This document shows, piece by piece, positions 835-63,195 of a stretch of 64,000 nt of DNA (positions are counted from its first letter, which is position 1; each line of letters opens with the position of its first letter). A model generated the notes under the pieces. The model did no database searches and was not told where the DNA came from. It saw only the letters and a list, made by a program, of their open reading frames with translations. Made by a program: the position numbers and the translations under genes. The stretch comes from Centroscyllium fabricii (Eukaryota): contig JBNRSN020000011.1 of assembly GCA_051313645.2 (NCBI GenBank), positions 114,824,001 through 114,888,000 on the forward strand, read 5' to 3'.

Positions 835-1103
835 TGTGGTAAACCTGTATTTCACCACTGTATTGTACCACTGTAATGGTACCATAATGCACCACTGTAC
901 ATATGTAGATATCGGTATACAGGAGCCTGCCTCAGCTGACCCACCTCTGACTCCTCCCCTGAGTCCAGGTATATAGGTAATTGCCTACCATCCCCCGGTC
1001 AGTACAGACCCGAGCTCAGCTGAGACACGCTCCATTCTATAGTTAATAAAAGTCTTTAGTTGAGGTAACTATTCATCTTTGTGTCTTGATTGACGATACG
1101 TCA
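835..1103 (+). mobile_element. 3' LTR of Gypsy element A, inserted into the 5' LTR of element B
   Basis: Follows the polypurine tract aaagaaggggtgaa; TG...CA ends (tgtggtaaa...tacgtca); internal TATA-like and AATAAA motifs. Confidence 0.8.
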
Positions 1104-2129
1104 CTGATGATGCTAGACTCTACCTCTGCATCACCTCTCTATATCACCCCGGTGCTATCCGATTGCTTGTGCTCAATTCCAGTCTTGGCTGAGGCATAAC
1201 TTCTTCCAGTTCAACACTGGAATGACCAAAGCCATCATTGTGGTGCCTGTGTCTTTAAGGATTACACTGGGCACTGCATTATGTGATGTCACCATGCTGC
1301 AGTACCTTTACCAACCACTATCGTGTATATAAGCTCGTGTGTGCAGTTTCTATTTCAGTTCTGTTATGCTCTGCTGTGAGTTCCTGATTTTACTATGACA
1401 GTAAAGATCACCTTGTTTTCACCGTTGACCTGCGAGTCTGTCATTATTGTTCCCAGTTAGCGCGGATCCAATAATGGCGACGAGGTTGGTCGAACACCTA
1501 GCTGTGCAATCGGCTACACTGAGAAAGGATGAAAGTTCTTGCCTAAACTTATCCATCGACCACCAAGACACATCCTGCACCTCAAACCAAGGAGGGGCAG
1601 TGCCTTCAACGGGAGGAACCCGTAGGCCTACACTCAACAACGGGAGTGGCGAGGCTCTTCACTCCAGGCAGCAGGAATTGGCATCTGGAGCAACCAAAAC
1701 CAACAGTAGCCAGCAGAAGCTCAACGACAGCAGGCAACAGAAATCGGCAACAGCAGCCAACAGAATTCACCAGCAGCAGCCATCAGCAACAGCAGCCAGC
1801 AGAAACTCACCGACAGCAGGCAACAGAATTCGACAACAGCAGCCAACAGAATTCGACAGCAGGAACCAGCAGAGTCCAGCATCGACGACAGTCAGCAAGA
1901 TCCGGCAAGGAAGGCCAACAGCGCGCCGGGTTTCCAGCTCCACAGCGGCAGGTAGGCCACTGAGCACAACCCAGCTAACTGAAGGGGTCGTCGAGAATCA
2001 GGGTTGGTTCTCCGACCAGCAGAAAAATAAGAAAAAAAAAATCATCGCGACCAGGTGTTAAGCATAAAGCTTTTGCTCCGACTGCGGGCGGAAGCTAAAC
2101 CCAGCGGGGAAGAGGCGCACAAGGCGGGG

Positions 2130-2470
2130 AGACGCCATCTTTTGGTGCGAAAACGCCGGAAGAGATGCGCAGGGGCGGGACCAGATGCCATCTTAGCATG
2201 GGAAGAAAACCGAAGAGACGCGCAGGGGCAGGACCAAACGCTATCTCAGTGCAGGAAGAAAACGGAAGAGACACGCAGGGGCGGGACCAGACGCCATCTC
2301 AACGTGGGAAGAAAATGGAAGAGACGCGCAGGGACGGGACCAGACGCCATCTTAGCGCAGGAAGAAAATGGAAGAGATGCGCAGGGGCGGGACCAGAAGC
2401 CATCTTAGCACGGGGAGAAACCAGGAAGATGCCGGAAAAGACACAGAGGTGTGGGACAAGACGCCATTTT
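2130..2470 (+). repeat. 53-bp tandem repeat in the leader of element B
   Basis: The motif (a)cgccatct recurs at 2185, 2238, 2291, 2344 and 2397 (period 53); most units also carry ggggcggg. Confidence 0.85.
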
Positions 2471-2486
2471 ACCCCAATAAATAAAG

Positions 2487-3660
2487 ATGGATCAAGAAAA
2501 TGTACCACAAGAGGCAGCTAGAGCCCGACAAAATAGAACAACACCAAATGGGTTTGGGATGTTTCAGTCCAGGAGAGAGGACTGGAAAGCATACTTAGAA
2601 CGGTTCGATATATACTGCGAGGTACAGGCAGTAACCAACAAAAACAAACTAAAAGTTTTGTTAAATGCAGTAGGTCCCGAAACTTATGGGCTACTACGAA
2701 CACTGGTAGCTCCAGAGAGACCAGCAGACAAATCACTTCAGGAAGTGAAACACATTTTAAAAGAAAATCTAAACCCCACACCCCCTTTTTTCGCGGAACG
2801 ATTTAAATTCTTTAAAAGGGAACAACAGAAAGGGGAGTCACAATCTGAATACCTGACAGAGCTTAGACGCTTGTCAAAACACTGCGAGTTTGGGGACGAG
2901 TTACTGAACTATTTAAGAGAGATTTGTTTGTGGCATCATAGATGAGGCCACTCAGAAGAGATTGCTGGCTAAAAAGACGCTCACGTTAGAGCAAGCCATC
3001 GAAATAGTCACAGCCCATGAGGCAGCTGCAGCAGGGGCAGCACAGTTAAGAAACAGTGGGGGTTGTGTGGAAACCCATGAAATTACGATGCGCACGTAAA
3101 AGTGCTACCGGTGTGGAAAGTCCACACACGATCAAAGCAATTGCTGGGCCAAAGATAAGGATTGCAGGCAGTGTGGCAAGATAGGCCACATTGCAGCGGT
3201 TTGTCGGTCAGGAAGACAAACAAAAGGGGTAAGGCGGCAAACCCAAAAGCAGGGCGGGGCCAGGAAGGTCCACAACATTACTGAGGACGGTTCGGAGAGC
3301 GAACCAGATGACCTGGGCAGAGAACATTGGGGGCTGGGAAGCCTAAAAGTCCACAACATGGGCGCACAAGCTGACCAGGAGGTTATGTGGAATTACCTCA
3401 GGGTGGCAGGAGTACCCATATCAATGGAGCTAGACACAGGGTCAGCTCTGTCAGTTATAAATGAACAGTTTTACAAAAAGACGTTTAAAGGAATACACGG
3501 GATAAAAGTTTAGGACTTTGGGGAGGTTGCCCGTCTCAGTTCGATACGAAGTTAATCAGACTAAAGGTCTTTACCTATATGTCTTGAAGGATGGTGGAGC
3601 ACCACTCTTGGGACATGAATGGATAAACAAAATCCATATAGATTGGAACTTGACCCATGA
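2487..3660 (+). pseudogene. Gypsy gag (CCHC zinc knuckles) and aspartic protease, disrupted
   Basis: EDWKAYLERF...AERFKFFKREQ gag motif; KCYRCGKSTH...C and CRQCGKIGHIAAVC knuckles; MELDTGSALSVI protease motif near 3423; LLGHEW flap; frameshift near 2920 and a stop near 3098. Confidence 0.85.
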
Positions 3661-4717
3661 CTTACACATAAAGGGCGAAGAAAATAATACAGCCACGTCA
3701 GACAGACTGGATGCACACCAGAGGCATATCTCCCGTCTGACTCTGGGGCTACAAGAAGCCCGAGACCAAATTGATTTGTTGCGGACTGCACAGAGCGAGT
3801 GGAAGCATCAACACAGACGATCACGGTTGAACGGAGCACTTCAGACAACTGAAGGAGGGGCTTTGAGTGAACTGACCCAGGGTCCTGATCTGGCTGAACC
3901 AAAAGACGGCACATTGCCTTATGGTGCTGGACTGAGTTATGCACCTCCATCACGGGTATCGGCAAGCACCCCAGACACACACAGGGGCTGCAAGGACTTG
4001 GCTAACAATAACCAGAGCCCAGTAGTCGACTCTAAATCTGGGAAGAACGTTAATAAGAAGAAAGGTCTTCTAAATAACCTTCCTGTGATTTCCAATAGGA
4101 CTTCTACTTCAGAAAGTTGCTCAGTCCCTGATGGTGTCTCTACTTCAGAAATACTCAAACTTGAATTGAACGATAAGACTCATGTCAAGGACAAGGAGAT
4201 CAGTTGTCTCCGGATTAGTTTCGAAGGTCAAGTGAAATTTCTGCAAACTGAGCTACAAACCTCCAAAGCTACAGTGGCTGCTTCACAGGACAGGAATGAG
4301 TCACTGGAGGAGATGCACAAAGAAATGAACCAACTTAAGGTGCAGATGCAGGAGTTGCATGAAACAAACAAGGCACTGCAAGACTATTTGGATGAGGCCA
4401 AGGAACAAAATAAGGATCTTCAGACACAGCTGAGCTCCAAAATAACTGCCTACGAGAGCAAATTGGAGCAGCTCTCAACTGGCAGGGAAGAAAAGTGCTT
4501 GGTGGCAATAGCCAAGCAACAAGAGACTGAGAAGAACCTGTTGGTGGCAATAGCCAAGCAACAAGAGACTGAGAAGAACCTGCTAGTAGTGCGGAACCTT
4601 CTTAAACAGTCAACTGAAGAGGTTGATGGACTTAAGGAGAAACTGGCTGTAATGGAGCAGGAGAAAGAGCTATTGGCGGAAGGTAAAGCGGAAGTGGAAA
4701 GAAAACGTGATTGCTGA
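3660..4717 (+). CDS. Open frame continuing the protease C-terminus, encoding a long predicted coiled coil of unknown origin; occupies the normal pol position
   Basis: ORF 3518-4717 (399 aa), rich in E/K/Q/L heptads, with a 42-nt internal duplication (VAIAKQQETEKNLL twice); no RT, RNaseH or integrase motifs before the PPT. Confidence 0.5.
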
Positions 4718-5744
4718 ACTCGGGAAACTGGGATGGTTGGTGGGGACAGCTGAAGAGCAAGGCTATCCAGAGATGACGGACGCCGAATGGCTTGGAGGAC
4801 ACGACTACCAGTTTGCCGATGAAAGCCATACAGTCAAGGAACCGACCACGAAAGCAAAGAAACAACACCGTCGGAGAAAAACTAGAAATCGTTAAATGTT
4901 AAAATTGTTAACAATGTTAGAACGTTCAAATGTACAGAGTGGATGTAACTAGAAATTGTTAAATGATAACAATTTTATCATTTAACAATTTTAACTATGT
5001 TAGAACATTCAAATGTAAAGAGTGGATGCACCATGTTAAGGAAGAGTACAATGTGACAAATGTACGTTAATTATTGTTGTAAAAATGTTATTTCAATTTA
5101 GAGAATGTAACGTGTAATGTTCGAGCTAAAAATATTGTTTGTATGAAAAAGGTTACACTGAGTGGAATGGTGTTAAAAATGATGGTAAGAGACTAACTAG
5201 CATCGAACAATGTATATAACAAAAGTTAACTGTTGTACCCCCTTGTATACTTATCATCGAACAATGTATGTAACAAAAGTTAATTGTTATACTCCCAAGT
5301 GTACTTATCATCGTACCTGTACGATTGAGTTAGGAAGGGAGGAATGTGGTGTATGGACAACATACACATATATACTGATGATGCTAGACTCTACCTCTGC
5401 ATCACCTCTCTCTATCACCCTGGTGCTATCCGATTGCTTGTGCTCAATTCCAGTCTTGGCTGAGGCATAACTTCTTCCAGTTCAACACTGGAATGACCAA
5501 CGCCATCATTGTGGTGCCTGTGCCTTTAACGATTACACTGGGCACTGCATTATGTGACGTCACCATGCTGCAGTACCTTTACCAACCACTATCGTGTATA
5601 TAAGCTCATGTGTGCAGTTTCTGTTTCAGTTCTGTTATGCTCTGCTGTGAGTTCCTGATTTTACTATGACAGTAAAGATCACCTTGTTTTCACCGTTGAC
5701 CTGCGAGTCTGTCGTTATTGTTCCTAAATAGCGCGGACCCAATA

Positions 5745-7380
5745 TCCGGAAGTCTGTAAAGTGCCTAATCGGAAGATGAGGTGCTGTTCCTCGAGCTTAC
5801 ACTGAGCTTCCGTGGAACAATGCAAGAGGCCGGGATTGGTGAGGTCATAGTGGGAATGGAGTGGTGAATTGAAATGACAGGTGACCAGAAACTCGGGGTC
5901 AGCCTTTTGGATGGAATGGAGGTGTTCCGCAAGGCAGTCATCCGATCTGCGTTTGGTCTCCCCAATGTAGAGGAGACCACATTGTGAGCAGCGAATACTG
6001 TATACTAAATTGCAAGAAGTACAAGTAAATCGCTGTTTCACCTGGAAGGGGTGTTTGGGGCCCTGGACAGTGGGAAGGGGGGAGGTATAAGGGCAGGTGT
6101 TGCATCTCCTGCGCTTGCACGGGAAGGTGCCGGGCGAAGGGGAAGGGGAATGATAGAGGAGTGGACTAGGATGTCTCGGAGGGAGTAGTTCCTACAGAAT
6201 GGGAGGGGAGGGGAAGATGTGTTTGGTGGTGGGATCATGTTGGAGGTGGCGGAAATGGCGGAGGAGGATGATCCATTGAATGTGGAGGCTGCTGGGGTGA
6301 AAGGGGAACCCTATTGTGGTTCCGGGAGGGTGGGGCAGGGGTGAGGGCAGAAGTGCGGGAGATAGAACGAAAACGGTCGAGGGCCGTGTCAACCACAGTA
6401 GAGGGGACTCCTCGGTTGAGGAAAAAGGAAGACATGTCAGAAGCACTGGTTTGGAAGGTGGCATCATCAGAGCAGATGTGGCGGAGATGGAGAAACTGGG
6501 ATAATGGAATAGAGTCCTCACAGGAGGTGGGGTGGGAGGAAGTGTAGTCCATGTAGCTATGGGAGTCAGTGGGCTTGTAGTGAATGTTGGTCAATAACCT
6601 ATCCCCAGAGATGGAGACAGAGAAGTCGAGGAAGGGAAGGGAAGAGTCGGAGATGGACCATGTGAAGGTGAGGGAAGGGTGGAAATTCGAGGCAAAGTGA
6701 ATGAAATTGTCTAGTTCAGGGCAAGAGCAGGAAACGGCACCGATACAGTCATCAATGTACTGGGAAAAGAGGTGAGGGAGGGGACCCGAGTAGGACTTGA
6801 ACAAAGAGTGTTCCACATATCCCACGAAAAGGCAGGCATAGCTCGGACCCATGCGGGTACCCACAGCAACACCTTTAATTTGGAGGAATGAGTGGAGTCA
6901 AAGGAGAAGTTGTTCAATGTGAGAACAAGTTCAGCCAGGCGGAGGAGGGTGGTGCTGGATGGGGACTGGTCAGGCCTCTGTTCAAGGAAGAAGCGGAGCG
7001 CCCTCAGGCCATCCTGGTGGGGGATGGAGGTATAGAGGGATTGTACGTCCATAGTGAAAAGGAGACGGTTGGGGCCTGGAAACTGGAAACTGTTAAAATG
7101 GCGGAGGGCGTCAGAAGAGTCATGGATGTAGGTGGGAAGAGACTGGACAAGGGGAGAAAAAATAGAGTTGAGATAGGAAGAGATAAGTTCCGTGGGGCAA
7201 GAACAGGCTGAAACGATAGGTCTACCAGGGCAGTCCTGTTTGTGGATCTTGGGAAGGTGGTAGAAGTGGGCTGTGCGGGGTTGGGAAACGATGAGGTTGG
7301 TGGCTGTGGGGGGAGGATCTCCAGAGGAGATGAGGTCAGTGACAGTCCTGGAAACGGTGGCTTGATGTTCGGTAGTGGTC
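5745..7380 (-). mobile_element. Penelope-like element: RT and GIY-YIG endonuclease, frameshifted
   Basis: MDVQSLYTSIPH, MGTRMGPSYACLFVG, YIDD, LPFLD RT motifs; FTCTSCNLVYSIRCSQCGLLYIGETKR GIY-YIG motif. Confidence 0.9.
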
Positions 7381-7559
7381 TTTTGGTCTCCACCTTTGGC
7401 TCTCTGTCAATTTTATTGTCTGATTATGCTCGTGAAGTGCTTTTGGATTTTTTACTACATTAAAGTCGCAATATAAAGGCAAATTGTTGTTGTTAAGTTA
7501 TATCTCTAAGTAAATTACCTACCCAAGCAGTTCAGGTGACATCATAAGCCATTATCTAC

Positions 7560-19899: not shown

Positions 19900-20600
19900 A
19901 TGGACGGTGATTGGTTTCTGTCTCCTCCTGATGCGAGTCCCAGGGTGATAGGCGGGGTGTGGGAGGCGGTGAGCCCTCCCTGCCGGTGGTCCTGGGCAGG
20001 CCAGGCGGAGGGCGCTTTGTTTCGATCCATTGCGGTAAGGAAGGGGCGGCGCCGGAGCTGCTTTCGCCGCAGCGTCTCCATTCATTCATTGATTCCTGCA
20101 GGTGGAAATGAGTGATCGGCAGACACTGAGCCCCGGCCCACCCACCCACACCAACCGCGGGGAGATGTGCAGCCCCGAGAGTCGGGCTGGCGGCCAGCAC
20201 CACTACAACTAGCCTGGCTTAACTGGACCTAATCCTTTTAGAATTATCTCTCTATATATATCTTCTGCTGCTATGGAGGAAAGTGCGAGCGAATCGCTGC
20301 CGGATCTGAAGGATTTGGAGAACAAGGTGGGACGGAAGACGCCCGAAGGTTTGCTGCGCTGGCTGCGGGAGGACACGGCTCGGCCCGCCGGGGACAAACT
20401 GGACCATCCCGGGCCGAGCGGCGAGCAGGCGGCGCCCGTTTGCGGGGCCGGCAACAGTCCGGGGAAGAGGCTGCCTGAGGGGCTGGCGGAGAAGATCCGA
20501 GTGCTGAGGCTGGACATGGTGAGTGAGAGAGGAGGGAGGGAGGGGGCGCTTTATTTACAGTATAAAGGTGCCCGGCTCGCTTGTGCAGGTATTTTAGAAA
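19900..20600 (+). promoter_or_regulatory. CpG island / probable promoter and first exon of LURAP1
   Basis: CpG-dense, non-repeat sequence with GC boxes (ggggcgg) around the start codon. Confidence 0.65.
20273..20518 (+). CDS. LURAP1: Leucine rich adaptor protein 1 (LRAP35a), coding exon 1
   Basis: MEESASESLPDLKDLENKVGRKTPEGLLRWLR...AEKIRVLRLDM matches the LURAP1 N-terminus; phase-0 donor ATG|gtgagt at 20519. Confidence 0.93.
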
Positions 20601-26615: not shown

Positions 26616-29239
26616 TTGGGTTTTTCTTTAGACTGAGTCAGTGCAGTAGCATTTTTTGAAAGCAGAGGAACGGTGTTGCATTTTGTCATTCCATGTTACA
26701 TTTGCTAATGTGGAGTTTTCAAACCAAAGACCCGAACAGAGCACCGGAATAAAAGAAAGTTCACTTGCAATAATCTTTTGTGGGAGAAGGAATTCCCGTG
26801 ACATTCAGTGGAACATTGTCATCTCAGAAATTTTCCAGAATCATTTGCAGCCGTTAGAAATCCGATTTAAATTAGCCTAAAATCAAATGATTCAAACTCA
26901 CAGAAGCAAAACTATCATTCAGAAAACTAGATTACTTCCAAGCACTTCATGCTAGATGATGGGAGATGGACAGGAGCTTCCCAGAGAGGAGGATGTTAAT
27001 AGGCACAAGATTTGACGCTTTTATTTACAAAGCAAAGAGAATATTCACCATGGGAGGGTTGCAGTAAGTCTAATTTTATGAAAATCATACAATACCTTTT
27101 TAGTATCAAAGTTTACACACTAAGTATGGTTTTACAGTGTATACTATAGTACACATCTCAATAGTTGCAGGTAAATGCAATGAGGGTTATGCATAATTAT
27201 ACAGATCTATACATTAGTGTTTGGTATTGGAGCTGGTGTTATCCCTAGTCAGGGGGTCCTAGTGGCTTGTGGGGAGATGGTGGGTTGTAGACTGCAGTAT
27301 TATTTGGGCCCTGCTGACACTGGAGGGCGCATGTAATCCTAGGCATGGCCTGGCTGTGGGTGGGTGGCTGGCCTCCAGGAAGGTGCCAAACATCTCCTGG
27401 TGTTTCTCCAGATCCATTAGCAGCCTGTGCATTACTTGATCTGACTGGTAGATGTCCCATATGCTTAGACTGCATTTGTTGTGTTTGGATTTTGGCATTA
27501 TCTTGCTACCAGGATGGAGATCTGTGTGAGCTCGAGAGGGACAGGTGTTCATTTTCCACGTAGTAGGCTGGGTATACAAGGACTTGGGTTCAGAGGAGTG
27601 GTTAGCACTCAGCAGCCAGCAGCACTTTTGTTCAGGAGGGTGAGGTAGGATCAGCATGTAAGTAGGAATGTGTGTTTGTGGTCACAGTTCTGCCAGGGCT
27701 GGGTGAAACTTACCAACTTTGGGCAAGGTGAGGTTCTGTGGTGTAGACGGTCAGCTCTGAGGGGGACAGTTTCCATTGGATTATAGGATCCTATATAAAA
27801 TGACAGATTTGACCGTAATGCAAGTAGTTACATTGGGTGATACAAAACCTGCCAGCCAGCTCATGGTGATAAAGCTGTTCCACTGGATCTTGATGGTGGA
27901 CGCCCTACCAGAATTATTCAAATGGGTCACAATCTGGTGTAAAAAGGACAAGGACCCCAGTGCTTGTGCATCATGCAGGTTGATATCCCTCTCAACTGCG
28001 ATTATAAAGTACTACAAAGATTCCATGGAGCAGAGATGAGGGAGATTATAGAAACAATTTAGTCCTCAATATCGTAGACTGAATCACTGGTCAAGCAAGC
28101 TATCCATATTATCTGTTTTCCCTCAATCCCCAAAGAAACAAGTGAGTGAAGCATGAATTTATGATCTAGTAGATTTTCTAAATGTTCTGAGAGCTATTGC
28201 CTTTATACATTAAAATCTGCATAGTCAGAGCGGAAACTGCTTATCAGGATCATTATTACGTATATGCAGGCAGTGGGCGGTTGTAACATTTTGCCAAATA
28301 GCCAGGTTAATGATTGATTTTTGGCTAATTAAACTTTAGTTATTCATAAGGGCTAGGTTGTTTGAAAATTATTGTCAGATATTTTTCCCGGCTAGTGCAT
28401 CTGTTTATTTTTGTATGGGTATATTTAATGCAATTTTTGGCCAATGGTGCATAGCCATGTTAATATTTGCAGTTGTAAATGCAAGGGAAATAAATGGGAG
28501 GAAGGTACGTATAACTCCAAAGCAAACCAATGGAGCTTTCTTCTCCCCTTTGCTGGTAGTCACGGCCTCGTGTGAAGCTGAGCCAATAGGCCAGGACAGC
28601 CCAAGGTGCTATCTACAAAAGCAAAATGCTGGAAATCCGAACTAGAAACAGAAAATGCTAGAAATACTCAGCAGGTCAGGGAGCATCTGTGGTCGGTGAC
28701 CTTTTTGTCAGAACAGTCAAGGCGCTATCTAAATGTGCTGAGTTAGTTGATCTCAGCCAGACCGGTCGTGGCAAATTAAAATGAGCCTTAAGTTCACAAG
28801 TGTAAGGAAGGCAAAAATCAGCCAAGGCTCCCACGGTCCAATAGCCTAATATTGTTCACGTATGAATGGCCACCTGAATTAATTGTTGAAGAGTGGCTGG
28901 TGCCAGTGGAACTGTAGTTTATTATGTTTTGGCTTCTTCCGAAAAGGAAAGAGAATTTTCTATCAGCGGACTGGAAGTCCCATTCTGGGATTTCATATAT
29001 TCATTCTTCTGTGAAATCCTGGAGTATGACCCAGCACTTCATTTAAAAATGCAGGTCTGCATTTCACAGTGCTACAGTAATACACATTCAGGCTCAGTGA
29101 CTACTGAACCTCTTTTTTTTCCCCCAGAAGATGTTTGCCACTTGGTGGAGCTTCCTCCTATACCATTTGTGGCAGATTGTGTATTGAAGATACTCTGTCA
29201 GAATTGTTCCCTGTTTCGAATGGTGTGAAGTAAGGATGT

Positions 29240-29790: not shown

Positions 29791-29864
29791 TGACACCCTA
29801 CTACTTCACACCATCATTGGGGAAGATATTTGTGATAGTGGGCAAGCTTTATAGAGAGATACGA

Positions 29865-29985
29865 TAGCAAAATACTGCGGATGCTGGAAATCTGAAATAA
29901 CAACAGAAAGCACTAGAGAAACTCAGCAGGCCAGGCAGCATCGGTGGAGAGAGAGATAGAGTTAGCGTTTCAGGTCGATGACCTT
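29865..29985 (-). mobile_element. Penelope-like terminal-repeat fragment (related fragments at about 28615-28712 and 39900-40378)
   Basis: gcaaaatactgcggatgctggaaatctgaaat...ctcagcaggccaggcagcatc; degenerate hammerhead stem II-GAAA remnant. Confidence 0.65.
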
Positions 29986-30671
29986 TTTTATAGAGATGTT
30001 TGCACTATTTTCCAGCTAGGCGATGAGTATTTTTGGCAATGCCTCATCTATCGGGTCTATGGTTCTGTTCTGGAATACAAGATGGGTATAGTTGTGTAGT
30101 GGTTATATTACTAGATTAGTAATCCAGAGGTCTCGACGAGCAATCCAGAGTGTGAGTTGAAATCCCACCATGACTGACTGAGAATTTGAATTCAGCTTTT
30201 TTTTTTAAATCTGGGATTTAAAAACTGATATCGGTTAAAGTGATAGCCGTCTGATTGTCATAAAACTGAACTGGTTCACAAATGTCTTTTTAAGGATGGA
30301 AAGGCAAAGGGGGTTGGAAATAGACCTTTTAGGGAACCTAAAAAAAGCCTGTTTAAATGCCAATTAATGAAAGCCTTCCTGCATTGACCTATTTTAAAAT
30401 AGTTTCTCCGATATTTTAGGTAGCAGCAAGGAGCTTCTCTACATCACCTGGCCTCCTGGGCAGGCAATAATCACCCCAAAGTAATTATGATTGCTGTCAG
30501 ATCTTTGAGCCCTAATTTAAAATGCAGATGAAATTATAAAACTGAATTAATGCTATTAATCTTAGAGGAGTGTTCTCTGTAGTAAATGGAGGCTATTTGG
30601 AGCTTTGGGTTTCCTTTCTTAATCATTGCACTTGCATTTCTGGTGTTAGTGATCAATCACTTGAAGAACAG

Positions 30672-31767: not shown

Positions 31768-31825
31768 AATGCAAGAAGTCACACAACACCAGGTTATAGT
31801 CCAACAGTTTTATTTTAAATCACCA
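31768..31825 (-). mobile_element. 58-bp Penelope terminal-repeat fragment with 12-bp TSD
   Basis: Matches the copies at 55473-55530 and 61977-62031; flanked by ttgtttgggaga on both sides. Confidence 0.75.
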
Positions 31826-32253: not shown

Positions 32254-32850
32254 GCATATCTAAGGGCGATTGATATCAAGATAATGCACCAGCTGATGGC
32301 TGTTAATGAAGGAATTGAGGCAGTGAAGTGGATTTTGGAAGAAAAAGGCACACTTGCCAGCAGATGCAGCAGCCTGACCAGCAGTATGTACAGCCTTGTG
32401 GAGAGTCAGGAGACCTCACGGAGAGGTAGCTGGAACAGCCTGCAGGATCCAAATGATAAATTGGATGGCATTTCCATTGGAAGTTTTTTGGATACTTTGG
32501 CCGATGATATGGATGAATACTGTCAAACCACCATAGATCCATTGTCCTCTACACACTCTAGCCAAGGAGGCCCATTCACCACAATGGAGAAAGAAATATA
32601 TTCCAATGAGACACACTGTCAACAAACCAACATGGCTAACAGCTTTTCGGAAAAGCAAGGGAACAATGTTGCTGATTACAATGTGGAAAGTAAATTTTCT
32701 CATGATAAACTATGCAAAGATGGTGGGAAACTAAAGATTCAAAAAAATGGAAAAATAGATTATGATGGTTGTAAACGAAATAAAATGCACATTGAATATG
32801 ATGCGCACTGGCACTGGGTGCAGTCACAAGATGATGTAACATTCCTGTGA
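32254..32850 (+). CDS. LURAP1: Leucine rich adaptor protein 1 (LRAP35a), coding exon 2
   Basis: Acceptor tttttaccattag|GCA; AYLRAIDIKIMHQLMAVNEGIEAVKWILEEKGTL...SIGSFLDTL...HWHWVQSQDDVTFL*; in frame with exon 1. Confidence 0.95.
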   Translation, partial: AYLRAIDIKIMHQLMAVNEGIEAVKWILEEKGTLASRCSSLTSSMYSLVESQETSRRGSWNSLQDPNDKLDGISIGSFLDTLADDMDEYCQTTIDPLSSTHSSQGGPFTTMEKEIYSNETHCQQTNMANSFSEKQGNNVADYNVESKFSHDKLCKDGGKLKIQKNGKIDYDGCKRNKMHIEYDAHWHWVQSQDDVTFL

Positions 32851-39899: not shown

Positions 39900-40378
39900 A
39901 TGAAATTAAACCCATTCAGCCTCTTTCTGTTACTTGAGAGAAAGCTCAACTTAAACTCGAGGAACAACACCTCATCTTCCGATTAGACACTTTACAGCTC
40001 TCCGGACTCAACATCGAGTTCAACAATTTCAGATCATAACTCCTGGTCCCCATTATATTTTTACCTCTTTATCCACCTTTTATTTGGCCTTTCTTTTCTC
40101 TATTGTGGGAGCCACCTCCCATTCTGCCAGGGTTTTTCACACCTAATCAACAGCTGTCTCCTGTCTACAGCATCATGTCTCATTTTGAATACCTCTCAGT
40201 CTTTTCTCTTTGTGCTGTCTTCTCTTTGTGCCCTCCCACCTCCCCCCGCCTTCCTGCTTGTTTCATTCCCCAGCTTTAGTCTTGATAAAGTGTCCGAACT
40301 CGAAATGTCGACTCTATATTTCTCTCCACTGATGCAGCCTGGCCTGCTGAGTTTTTCCAGCATTTTCTGTTATTTCTG
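39900..40378 (+). mobile_element. Penelope-like element 3' end
   Basis: KLEEQHLIFRLDTLQLSGLNIEFNNFR, homologous to the end of the element at 5745-7380; followed by a terminal repeat ending ccagcattttctgttatttc. Confidence 0.75.
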
Positions 40379-54373: not shown

Positions 54374-55287
54374 GGAGTCAATTTTCATGGTGGGTTTTTG
54401 GGCGGCCGGGGAGGGAAAATCGCTAAAACGGGGGTCCGTGACCCCTCCCGCCAGCTTCTCGCCCGCTTGTCAGTTTCACCCGGCGGGTCTGATCGGCCCA
54501 CCTCTGTCCTGCCCGGCATCAGTGGAGATGGTCGTTAGGCTCATTAGGGGCCCTTAATTGGCACCGGTAATGCCATTTTAAGGGCCCATTGCCATTTTGA
54601 GCCTCTTCCCACGCAAAACCCGCCCGGTGGGAACACCGCCGTTGAAAGCTGGCGGACACACAATCGGCTTGGTGTCTTCCACCTTCGAGGCATTGAAGCA
54701 GCTGCCGCAGAATGGCTGGCTGGCCTCCAACATGCTGGAGGTCTAACTGTCTCCCTCGGATGCCCAAGATCAGTGGCCAAAAACCTTTAAACAACTTACT
54801 ACCCACCTGCTTGCCAGTGGCTCACAGAAAACGTGCACCGGAGCTGTCAGGAGCCTGCCTGTGAAACAAAGCACTTACACCTATCAATCATTGAGTGGGT
54901 GTTAGTTTCTGTTTACATTGGATTCTACTCTTAGATTCCACTGAAACCATAAACAAACAGACCAGACTAGTTAGAGCTGTCACTCATCGAGTTGCGGTTA
55001 CAATCTGTTTACATTGGATTATGACGTCAGAATGCCCTGAAACCACAGAAAGGAAAACAGCAGCCCACTTACAGCTGCCAATCATTGGCTCTGCTGCTGA
55101 CACGGTGGAAAGTCCGCCGGCTTTCTATGTAAAATGAATCAATTTGCAGGGGCTTCCCACACTCGGGGATTTAATTGGCCAATTGAGCCAAAATTGCATG
55201 GGACTTCCACACCCCTCAGAAAGCGGGAAGATAAAATGATCAGCGGGGAACCCACCCATTTCCCACACCTTCAGGAAAATTGACCCC
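54374..55287. mobile_element. Harbinger-type MITE
   Basis: TIRs ggagtcaattttc / gaaaattgacccc; ttt on both flanks. Confidence 0.6.
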
Positions 55288-55358
55288 TTTAGCTGTTGAT
55301 TAGATCTTATGCTCCTCTTTGTGAAAAGTGCCTAGGAACCACGTAGACCTACTCAATT

Positions 55359-55566
55359 GTGTGCTCTAGGGTTAGATGTGTATGAGATCGGATTTCTCCC
55401 CTCCCCGATATGTGATCTTTGAGTTCAGTCTCTCTCTGTTCACCTGACGAAGGAGCATCGCTCCGAAAGCTTGTGATTTAAAATAAAACCGTTGGACTAT
55501 AAATCTGGTGTTGTGTGACTTCTTGCATTTGTCCACCCCAGTCCAACACCAGCACCTCCACATTAT
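55359..55566 (+). mobile_element. Penelope-like terminal repeat
   Basis: TSD tactcaatt; shares sequence with 58043-58416 and 61977-62412. Confidence 0.7.
55440..55476 (+). ncRNA. Minimal type I hammerhead ribozyme motif
   Basis: UCAC-CUGACGA-A-GGAGC(auc)GCUCC-GAAA-GCUU-GUGA: stem I, conserved core, stem II, palindromic stem III and a CUU triplet. Confidence 0.75.
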
Positions 55567-56005
55567 TACTCAATTCATAGCCTCTTTGATAAGATAGCTA
55601 TGGAACTCCAAAGTGTCCTTGATTATGTCTCTTACATTTAATCACTGCTATTGATTGAGTTTGCTAACACTGAATCCTGTGCTATGTGTTGAAAGAAGGT
55701 ATTTGAAACTTTGACCACATGTTGAGACTTGGTCAAAACCCTAATTGCTGAGATGGCCGGTATGGCATGACGCACCAAGAGTGGATGAACAGGAAAAGTA
55801 TCATGTAAAGGGCAGATAGATATCAGCCTGGTCATATGACTGACCCGGGGATATAAAGGACTGAGAGATTAAGTGACTGTGCTCTAACCGGGTGGGTTGA
55901 TTCTCTACACAAAGATCTACAAGAGCTCAACCAAACTTTTCAATCATTTGGACTTGTACCAAGCGGGTGTATGTATTGTTTGCTTACTGTTGGCTAATCA
56001 AGTAA

Positions 56006-58042: not shown

Positions 58043-58416
58043 TGATGTGGAGGTGCCGGTGTTGGACTGGGGTGGACAATTGTAAGAAGTCCCACAACAC
58101 CAGGTTATAGTCCAACAGTTTTATTTGAAATCACAAGCTTTCGCAGCATAGCTCCTTCATCAGGTGTATGCAAAAGAGATTCATTTAAACACAGCATATA
58201 TAGAGGGAGAGAACAATGCAATCCTCTCAACTGTCCAACATCACACCTCAGCAGAGAGACACCCAAAGCAATCAAAGGTGTTGAACACAGCCAGGCACCA
58301 GCCTGAGATCAATGAGGTGCAGTCACAAAGGGTCAAATGTTGCAGTCTGGTGTCTGTGTGAAAACCCACAGAATGATTTAAAAAAAAAAAAAAAGATTTT
58401 TCTTGCTGGAAAAATA
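58043..58416 (-). mobile_element. Penelope-like terminal repeat with hammerhead motif (58131-58166)
   Basis: Reverse complement cacCTGATGAaggagctatgctgcGAAAgcttgtga; possible TSD atttaca. Confidence 0.7.
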
Positions 58417-61769: not shown

Positions 61770-63195
61770 CAGCAGAGAGAGTAGACAATAATAATGCAAT
61801 AGATATAATTTACTAGATTTTCAAAAGGCCTTCGATAAGCTACCCCATAATAGACCGATGAACAAAGTCAGAGAATGTGGAGTCAGGGGACAAGTAGCAG
61901 AATGGATTGCTAGCTGAAAGCAGAGAGTAGTGGTAAAAGGTGGCAAAAGGTGGGTAGTGGTGTTCTATAAGGATCAATGCAAGAAGTCACACAACACCAG
62001 GTTATAGTCCAACAGTTTTATTTGAAATCACAAGCTTTCAGAGTGCTGCTCCTTCCTCAGGTGTGAGAGAAGTTAATTTAAGCACAGCATATATAGCAAT
62101 CTAATCTCTCCAACATCACACAGAGCAGACACCGAGCCGACAAAGGTGTTTTAACATATTCATCAGATCATGAGATCAATGAGGTACAGTCACGAAGGGT
62201 CAAATGTTGCAGTCTTGTCTCTGTGTAAAAACACACAGAATGATTTAAAAAAAAAGGGGATTTTCCTTACTGGAGAACGCAGCAGCGAACAAGACAAAGA
62301 TGACTTGAGTCTGGATGACTCTACGTCAGGCGGGGTCACATGTAGCGTGACATGAAGCCAATATCACAGTAGAGGCCGTCCTCATGGGTGCGGAATTTGG
62401 CTCATAATTTGGCTATAAGGATCAGTGCTGGAACCATTGTTGTTTGCAATTTATATTAATGATTTAGAGTTTGGAATCAAAAACACAATTTCTAAATTTG
62501 TGGATGACACTAAATTGGGGGAGGGGGAGATAGTCAATATTGAGGAGGACATTAATAAACTTTCAGAATGGGCAAATAATTGGCAAATGAAGTTCAACAC
62601 AGATAAATATGAGGGATTACATTTTGCTAGGAAGAACAAGGAGGTCACTTATTACTTGGAGGGTGCAAGTCTAGGTGGGGTAGAGGAACAAAGGGAATCT
62701 GGAGTGCAAATACACAAATCACTAAAAAATTGCAACACAGGTTAACAAGGCCATAAAAAAAGCAAACCAAGCACTAGGGTTTATTTCTAGAGGGATAGAA
62801 TTGAACAGTAGGGAAGCTATGCTAAACCTGTATTGAACCTTGGTTAGACCACACTTGAGAGTACTGCGTACAGTTCTGGCTGCCATAATATAAAAAGGAT
62901 ATAGAGGCACGGGAAAGGGTGCAGAGAAGATTTACAAGGATGATACCAGAAATGCGAGGGTATACATCAGCAAAGGATGAACAGGCTGGGTCTCTTTTCT
63001 CTTGAAAAAATAAGGCTGAGGTGTGACTGAATAGAGGTCTTTAAAACTATGAAAGGTTTTGACAGAGTGGATACAGAGAGAATGTTTTCACTTGTGGGGA
63101 AGAGAATAACTAGTGGCCATCAATATAAGATAGTCACCAAGAAATCTAATAGGGAATTCAGAAGAAACTTCTTTACCCAAAGAGTGGTGAGAATA
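61770..63195 (+). mobile_element. CR1 RT fragment interrupted by a Penelope repeat
   Basis: YLDFQKAFDK, LFAIYINDL, KFVDDTK and FRRNFFTQRVV motifs. Confidence 0.85.
61977..62412 (-). mobile_element. Penelope-like 3' fragment with hammerhead motif (62028-62063)
   Basis: 12-bp TSD ctataaggatca; reverse complement cacCTGAGGAaggagcagcactctGAAAgcttgtga. Confidence 0.75.

Follow-up and report, generated by a model that had tools for sequence, protein, structure and literature searches.

Features of the window and its hammerhead motifs

The window analyzed here is a stretch of 64,000 nucleotides from Centroscyllium fabricii (contig JBNRSN020000011.1), whose genome measures 7.2 Gb. It contains an exon of a leucine-rich adaptor protein (LURAP) gene, an LTR-retroelement-like unit, a decayed Penelope-like element (PLE) and four insertions of another Penelope-type repeat, three of which carry a hammerhead motif (Table 1). 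The interval 20273–20521 (+) has no Pfam match and is presumably a further exon of the LURAP gene. The 3' end of the decayed PLE is interrupted by another repeat (5345–5744). Upstream of copy 1, a unique-looking segment (54900–55250, +) contains repeated CTGTTTACATTGGATT and one TGACGTCA, which together with CCAAT boxes we take to be promoter- or enhancer-like.

Table 1. Coordinates of the hammerhead motifs, the insertions that carry them and other features of the window
Feature	Position	Strand	Remarks
LTR-retroelement-like unit	1103–5744		371-bp direct repeats 1103–1473 and 5374–5744 (96.5%) around gag-like frames
Second, decayed PLE (RT, linker Cys motif, GIY-YIG)	5745–7406	−	30–37% to the 890-aa ORF
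Second family (CGUY helix III), truncated/decayed end	28647–28692	−	does not pass descriptor
Second family, truncated/decayed end	29864–29989	−	does not pass descriptor
Second family, truncated/decayed end	39942–40374	+	does not pass descriptor
Copy 4, 56-nt stub without core	31768–31823	−	begins at predicted cleavage site after 2 extra nt
Copy 4 TSD, TCTCCCAAACAA (12 bp)	31837–31826 and 31767–31756	−	sequence match
LURAP exon	32254–32850	+	Pfam LURAP, E 7.7e-47
Copy 1, 5' TSD, TACTCAATT (9 bp)	55350–55358	+	sequence match
Copy 1, 5'-truncated pLTR end with ~35-nt tail	55359–55566	+	98% to L014 over 211 nt
Copy 1, minimal type I hammerhead	55440–55476	+	intact; predicted cut after U55472
Copy 1, 3' TSD	55567–55575	+	sequence match
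Copy 2, 5'-truncated pLTR with tail, second subfamily	58043–58412	−	94% to L085 over 380 nt
Copy 2, minimal hammerhead	58131–58166	−	CUGAUGA from 58163; 3-bp stem I; G.G mismatch in stem II (58144)
Copy 2 TSD, TGTAAAT (7 bp)	58423–58417 and 58042–58036	−	sequence match
Copy 3, ORF end and whole pLTR without tail, third subfamily	61977–62402	−	93% to L133 over 435 nt
Copy 3, minimal hammerhead	62028–62063	−	CUGAGGA from 62060; stem I 3 bp
Copy 3 TSD, TGATCCTTATAG (12 bp)	62424–62413 and 61976–61965	−	sequence match

An earlier note, made from the sequence alone, had reported the three motifs, and all were found at the positions and on the strands that it gave. They share the core and differ, as the note had described, at N7 (C, U and G in copies 1, 2 and 3) and in loop II (AUC, UAU and AGC), with the catalytic bases fixed. 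Copy 1 reads in full as stem I UCAC (55440–43), CUGACGA (55444–50), one extra A, stem II GGAGC/AUC/GCUCC (55452–64), GAAA (55465–68), GC, U16.1 (55471), U17 (55472) and GUGA (55473–76). Stem II is mismatched in the other two copies: the mismatch of copy 2 is private, with G at this position in 1 of 229 parsed copies, and two substitutions in copy 3 leave C.A mismatched at 62044 and a G.U pair at 62040. The features by which PLE minimal hammerheads are recognized are present, namely CUGANGA, GAAA and UH with stems I and II, an extra base between positions 9 and 10.1, G10.1–C11.1 and a palindromic 15.2/16.2.

The bare pattern CTGANGA..GAAA matched the window eight times against 6.6 expected, which is chance level. 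A full structural descriptor recovered two of the three copies, copy 2 failing through its mismatch, and gave 30 matches in 100 randomly drawn 10-kb stretches of the genome (1.0 Mb in total), 23 of them with GCUU, against none in each of five shuffles. Rfam produced no hammerhead match at E ≤ 5. Folding z-scores of the single motifs were weak (−1.64, −0.76 and +0.92), and stems I and II formed in the fold of copy 1 only; a cofolded pair of motifs produced a strand-swapped dimer instead of a helix III dimer, which is uninformative on dimerization. From their sequence, the three motifs are predicted self-cutting type I minimal hammerheads of a Penelope-type element.

Published minimal hammerheads from the pLTRs of metazoan PLEs (Cervera and De la Pena 2014, PMC4209133) are alike in being type I, in CUGANGA followed by an extra base (after A9 in the published consensus) and GAAA, in a stem II that opens with G10.1–C11.1, in the 2-nt palindromic 15.2/16.2 and in a short stem I. 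Most of them, too, stand alone within a truncated copy, and some lie on opposite strands. The earlier note had considered the AAGCUU palindrome with its CUU triplet unusual, which is not the case: GAAAGCUU is common to the shark motif, Chrysemys and Philodina (2 of the 56 motifs in Fig S3 of PMC4209133), and U17, the U at the cleavage position, is present in 24 of the 56 as counted from the PDF text. The UCAC/GUGA stem I is likewise common to the shark, Petromyzon and Strongylocentrotus motifs (PMC4209133). The table and alignment of that survey include no shark.

The motifs lie in truncated insertions of an autonomous element

Copies 1–3 are 5'-truncated, TSD-flanked insertions from three subfamilies. 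Copy 1 is 95% identical to the intact element L358, and its 3' stop is the position of the ORF start codon; copy 3 retains the last ~20 codons of the GIY-YIG ORF (tblastn match to ORF residues 863–890). Copy 4, which the earlier note had overlooked, lies upstream of the LURAP exon and is probably in a LURAP intron, in antisense orientation. Only copies 2 and 3 have a same-strand partner motif in the neighborhood, namely each other at a distance of 3.9 kb, and both are damaged. Isolated copies decay with no partner motif nearby, and copies 1–3 are most likely inert.

Each window copy has close relatives across the genome, whose 5' parts continue into an ORF. An N-terminal ORF probe located 30 loci, 13 of which had a same-strand hammerhead upstream. 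Six long copies, selected for a hammerhead-ORF junction, were fetched: an uninterrupted 890-aa ORF was present in three (L355, L357 and L358; 880–883 of 890 aa identical), and four (these three and L354) had a hammerhead on both sides, 3,188–3,217 nt apart. Intact elements are organized as pLTR-ORF (890 aa)-pLTR with one hammerhead per pLTR, a spacing of 3,216–3,217 nt and the ATG 92 nt downstream of the predicted cut. The family is young, with intact ORFs. The earlier assignment to Penelope-type minimal type I hammerheads with a palindromic helix III was right.

The 890-aa protein matches RVT_1 (Pfam, E 1.5e-9) and, below the Pfam cut-off, GIY-YIG (E 0.0013), and it contains DKG, YIDD, a CX4CxxC linker and VVY-C-C-YIG. 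The linker motif, CHSNLCKTC at residue 752, fits the CX2-5CxxC RT-EN linker common to Neptune and Nematis. The best named homologues are from sharks (78–90%), followed by turtles and ticks. Copies of the family have one of two fixed 3' ends, ~56 or ~92 nt downstream of the cut, with or without the tail (present in 24 of 52 unbiased copies), and their 5' truncation points are variable, often with an inverted arm. Assembled contigs from four runs (four organisms, their RNA status guessed) cover the motif-to-ORF region at ≥80%, but they are not counted as expression; all 24 runs compared consist of assembled contigs, in which RNA ends and strand are unreadable.

The layout with RVT_1, linker Cys motif and GIY-YIG matches PLEs of the Neptune/Nematis type (Craig et al. 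2021, PMC8557442). Likeness to EN+ PLEs as described there and by Arkhipova (2013, PMC3846280) extends to the defining single ORF with RT and C-terminal GIY-YIG, the CX2-5CxxC linker, two Cys inside GIY-YIG, partial tandems, an inverted 5'-truncated arm, an optional 30–40 bp tail and TSDs. The shark copy number differs in exceeding the ~37,000 given as high for Naiads (PMC8557442). The parent is an autonomous Penelope-like retrotransposon with Neptune-type motifs, by which its clade is tentatively placed.

Copy number and comparison with retrozymes

Genome-wide, the intact motif has at least 132,323 exact matches, with none for the reversed control. The corresponding numbers are ~4,000 in coelacanth and ~9,000 in Xenopus (PMC4209133), and the total is comparable to the 126,247 canonical motifs of axolotl (PMC7229834; bioRxiv 10.64898/2026.07.22.740005); it is about the largest among the published figures compared. 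The literature listings consulted included no paper on this shark family; Lunse et al. 2016 (PMC5785218, as summarized in the review PMC6765202) may list shark motifs, and the supplements of the bioRxiv preprint may name the families of its one chondrichthyan.

The earlier note had likened the copies to short, TSD-flanked, retrozyme-like units. The TSDs (9, 7 and 12 bp) are confirmed, but the insertions derive from an autonomous element by 5' truncation, and the sample contained no tandem arrays of them. Non-autonomous retrozymes that amplify themselves via tandem transcripts and circular RNAs would be short, TSD-flanked and very numerous with little ORF, as these units are. Animal non-LTR retrozymes share the type I hammerhead and the link to PLEs (PMC7229834; bioRxiv 10.64898/2026.07.22.740005), and a pLTR origin has been proposed for them in the preprint. 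A few short same-strand pairs also exist (L012, and two of <1 kb seen by eye among the first 100 matches listed). Nevertheless, we regard this explanation as highly improbable: intact autonomous parents exist, and in place of a discrete unit length the 5' ends are continuous from +7 to beyond −890, running into the ORF. Among 36 motifs in 1.2 Mb, same-strand pairs closer than 1.5 kb numbered 0 against 9 on opposite strands, and tandem hammerhead monomers of 150–450 bp were absent from the window and from the 1.2-Mb sample. The motif is, moreover, minimal, whereas those of described retrozymes are canonical (PMC7229834). For copies 1–3, a retrozyme identity is largely refuted.

Constraint on the hammerhead core

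When the majority sequences of seven subfamilies are aligned, 29 of 37 columns within the hammerhead show no variation, compared with 3 of 30 just upstream. The eight variable columns are N7, loop II and three stem changes that keep pairing, and the chance of their missing all 11 core bases is ~0.04. The block downstream of the motif is equally conserved in the same sequences (78 of 87 columns), so that the conserved columns are not, by themselves, a specific sign of catalysis. In 34 parsed copies from unbiased stretches, N7 was C in 20, G in 9 and T in 5, and core positions had single changes only. Other common variants lay in loop II, in stem II (A/G opposite U, 19/15) and in stem I (A/G opposite U, C/T opposite G). 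Decay among inserted copies includes CpG changes in stem II (23/229) and at G12 (9/229).

A second family, in which helix III is CGUY, shares the core and has both bases replaced in 7 of 10 pairs, in a comparison of eight hand-picked rows whose covariation rests on two lineages; an upstream PLE endonuclease match was found for one of seven second-family hits. These sequence comparisons suggest that the core is probably under constraint at the level of lineages. Most differences among the three window motifs were inherited with their subfamilies, and stem II is decayed in copies 2 and 3; therefore, nothing points to selection on these particular insertions.

NUU cleavage sites have low activity. 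In the energy model, AAGCUU pairing that includes U17 reaches −4.3 kcal/mol compared with −2.5 kcal/mol for the shorter palindrome; the extension would pair the cleavage base, and the U17 variant may be nearly inactive.

Genomic 5' ends at the predicted cleavage site

Exact copies of the cleavage triplet with its downstream block, which represent read-through, numbered 173,215 (reversed control 0). An end was scored at a base when the match of a copy began there and the two preceding bases failed to match. There were 1,268 ends at the predicted cut, 879 at −1, 807 at +1 and 936 at +2; the distribution is far from flat by chi-square, with an excess at the cut of 1.45-fold over the three neighbors, and the ends at the cut equal 0.7% of read-through copies. 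Real ends or restarts accounted for 29 of 30 loci examined at the cut, 23 of them inverted joints, and the +2 set was similar. The excess is open to sequence effects and is treated as minor in our main reading; fossil cleavage as the main claim was rejected, the excess being only 1.45-fold.

Unbiased 5' ends fell at the cut in 3 of 52 cases (2 loci) in one set and 0 of 29 in a second. Within these 81 ends, whose boundaries are blurred by a few bases and in which the arms of one insertion are not independent, 75 were upstream of the cut and 28 lay 25–52 nt upstream, at the front edge of the motif, with few just beyond. Nearly all copies read through the cut, so most copied RNAs were presumably uncut, and many may have begun near the motif, possibly at a pLTR start site. 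By these counts, cutting, if any, affects under ~1% of copied templates. As a separate observation, a TATATA run is located ~35–40 nt upstream of CUGA in three of the seven subfamilies and is missing from the others; it could place a start site near the stub pile-up.

The front-edge pile-up of 28 ends would also fit a motif maintained for its fold or for protein binding at the transcript start (5' UTR, promoter edge or RT recognition region), with a U17 form that barely cuts. Conservation that begins at stem I and runs unchanged to the ATG fits such a role, the AAGCUU register could trap U17, and published minimal hammerheads cleave poorly (PMC4209133). This account has some chance of being right but is unlikely, given that the columns invariant between the two families are exactly the catalytic core, and that related PLE hammerheads cleave as dimers or with protein and lose cleavage when the core is mutated (PMC4209133, PMC11167929).

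It is rather doubtful that a minor fraction of templates is cleaved by the hammerhead in living cells, with run-off at the cut leaving stubs of 56–94 nt such as copy 4. Copy 4 does start at the cut, as do the surplus among the 1,268 ends, the three random ends from two loci and the three tandem restarts at the cut base in one locus (L298–L300). The surplus is nevertheless small relative to read-through and to the three control positions, the second unbiased set has no such end, junction classes are alike at the cut and at +2, and paired arm ends are also found at +1. Stem I complementarity, moreover, supplies GTG(A) microhomology for inverted joints at the cut base, as judged by eye; a separate automatic scoring of microhomology was limited by subfamily mismatch to its single reference.

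Individual loci with starts at this base include L298–L300 (G000:C1:60514816-60514903), where the tandem restarts are 30 nt each and stand beside an inverted arm, and the inverted insertions L231:8820-9000 (both arms) and L198:864-1028 (one arm).

Discussion

We consider it very probable that the window motifs are pLTR hammerheads of an autonomous Penelope-like retrotransposon, residing in likely dead 5'-truncated insertions, and that the motif likely works only in the parent RNA, with predicted weak cutting as a dimer or with the element protein. The protein would nick the target through its GIY-YIG domain and prime reverse transcription internally at two 3' points, by analogy with the anole element PAc. 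On the same analogy, the template would usually be RNA that has not cleaved itself, and premature ends would produce stubs. Two hammerheads of one transcript may pair through the AGCU palindrome and cut, which would free a unit RNA of 3.2 kb and strip it of the 3' priming site; cutting would therefore process or limit the transcript and be unneeded for insertion. Any such cleavage, in the parent transcript, would be weak and dependent on the dimer or on protein.

Anolis PAc, a Poseidon element (Frangieh et al. 2024, PMC11167929), is alike in its two 3' end points past the hammerhead, the tail marking two RT start sites, and in uncut RNA as the main template. Its hammerhead is protein-assisted and dispensable for insertion in vitro: ribozyme mutants retain the ability to insert, and uncut RNA serves as the main substrate, in agreement with the mostly uncut templates suggested here. 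PAc differs in belonging to another clade and in an ORF that starts inside the hammerhead, whereas the shark ATG lies 92 nt past the cut.

The window stubs belong to a very abundant shark repeat, and the original find is correct but mostly ordinary: the class is a described one and the claimed novelties fail, which leaves two points of note, the very high copy number and a weak hint from the distribution of 5' ends. It is possible, though we think it improbable, that the ~400 extra ends at the cut are a trace of hammerhead cutting in vivo, that the front-edge pile-up reflects transcription start and that the ribozyme is a rarely fired 5' UTR switch that strips the priming site from full-length RNA. 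If so, the RNA ends of the element would be preserved, as in a fossil record, in the 130,000-plus copies. The parts of PMC4209133 and PMC11167929 consulted contain no in vivo evidence of PLE hammerhead cutting. Intact ORFs together with at least 132,323 motifs make this family valuable material, because they permit per-base mapping of insertion ends, which bears on whether PLE hammerheads cut in vivo.
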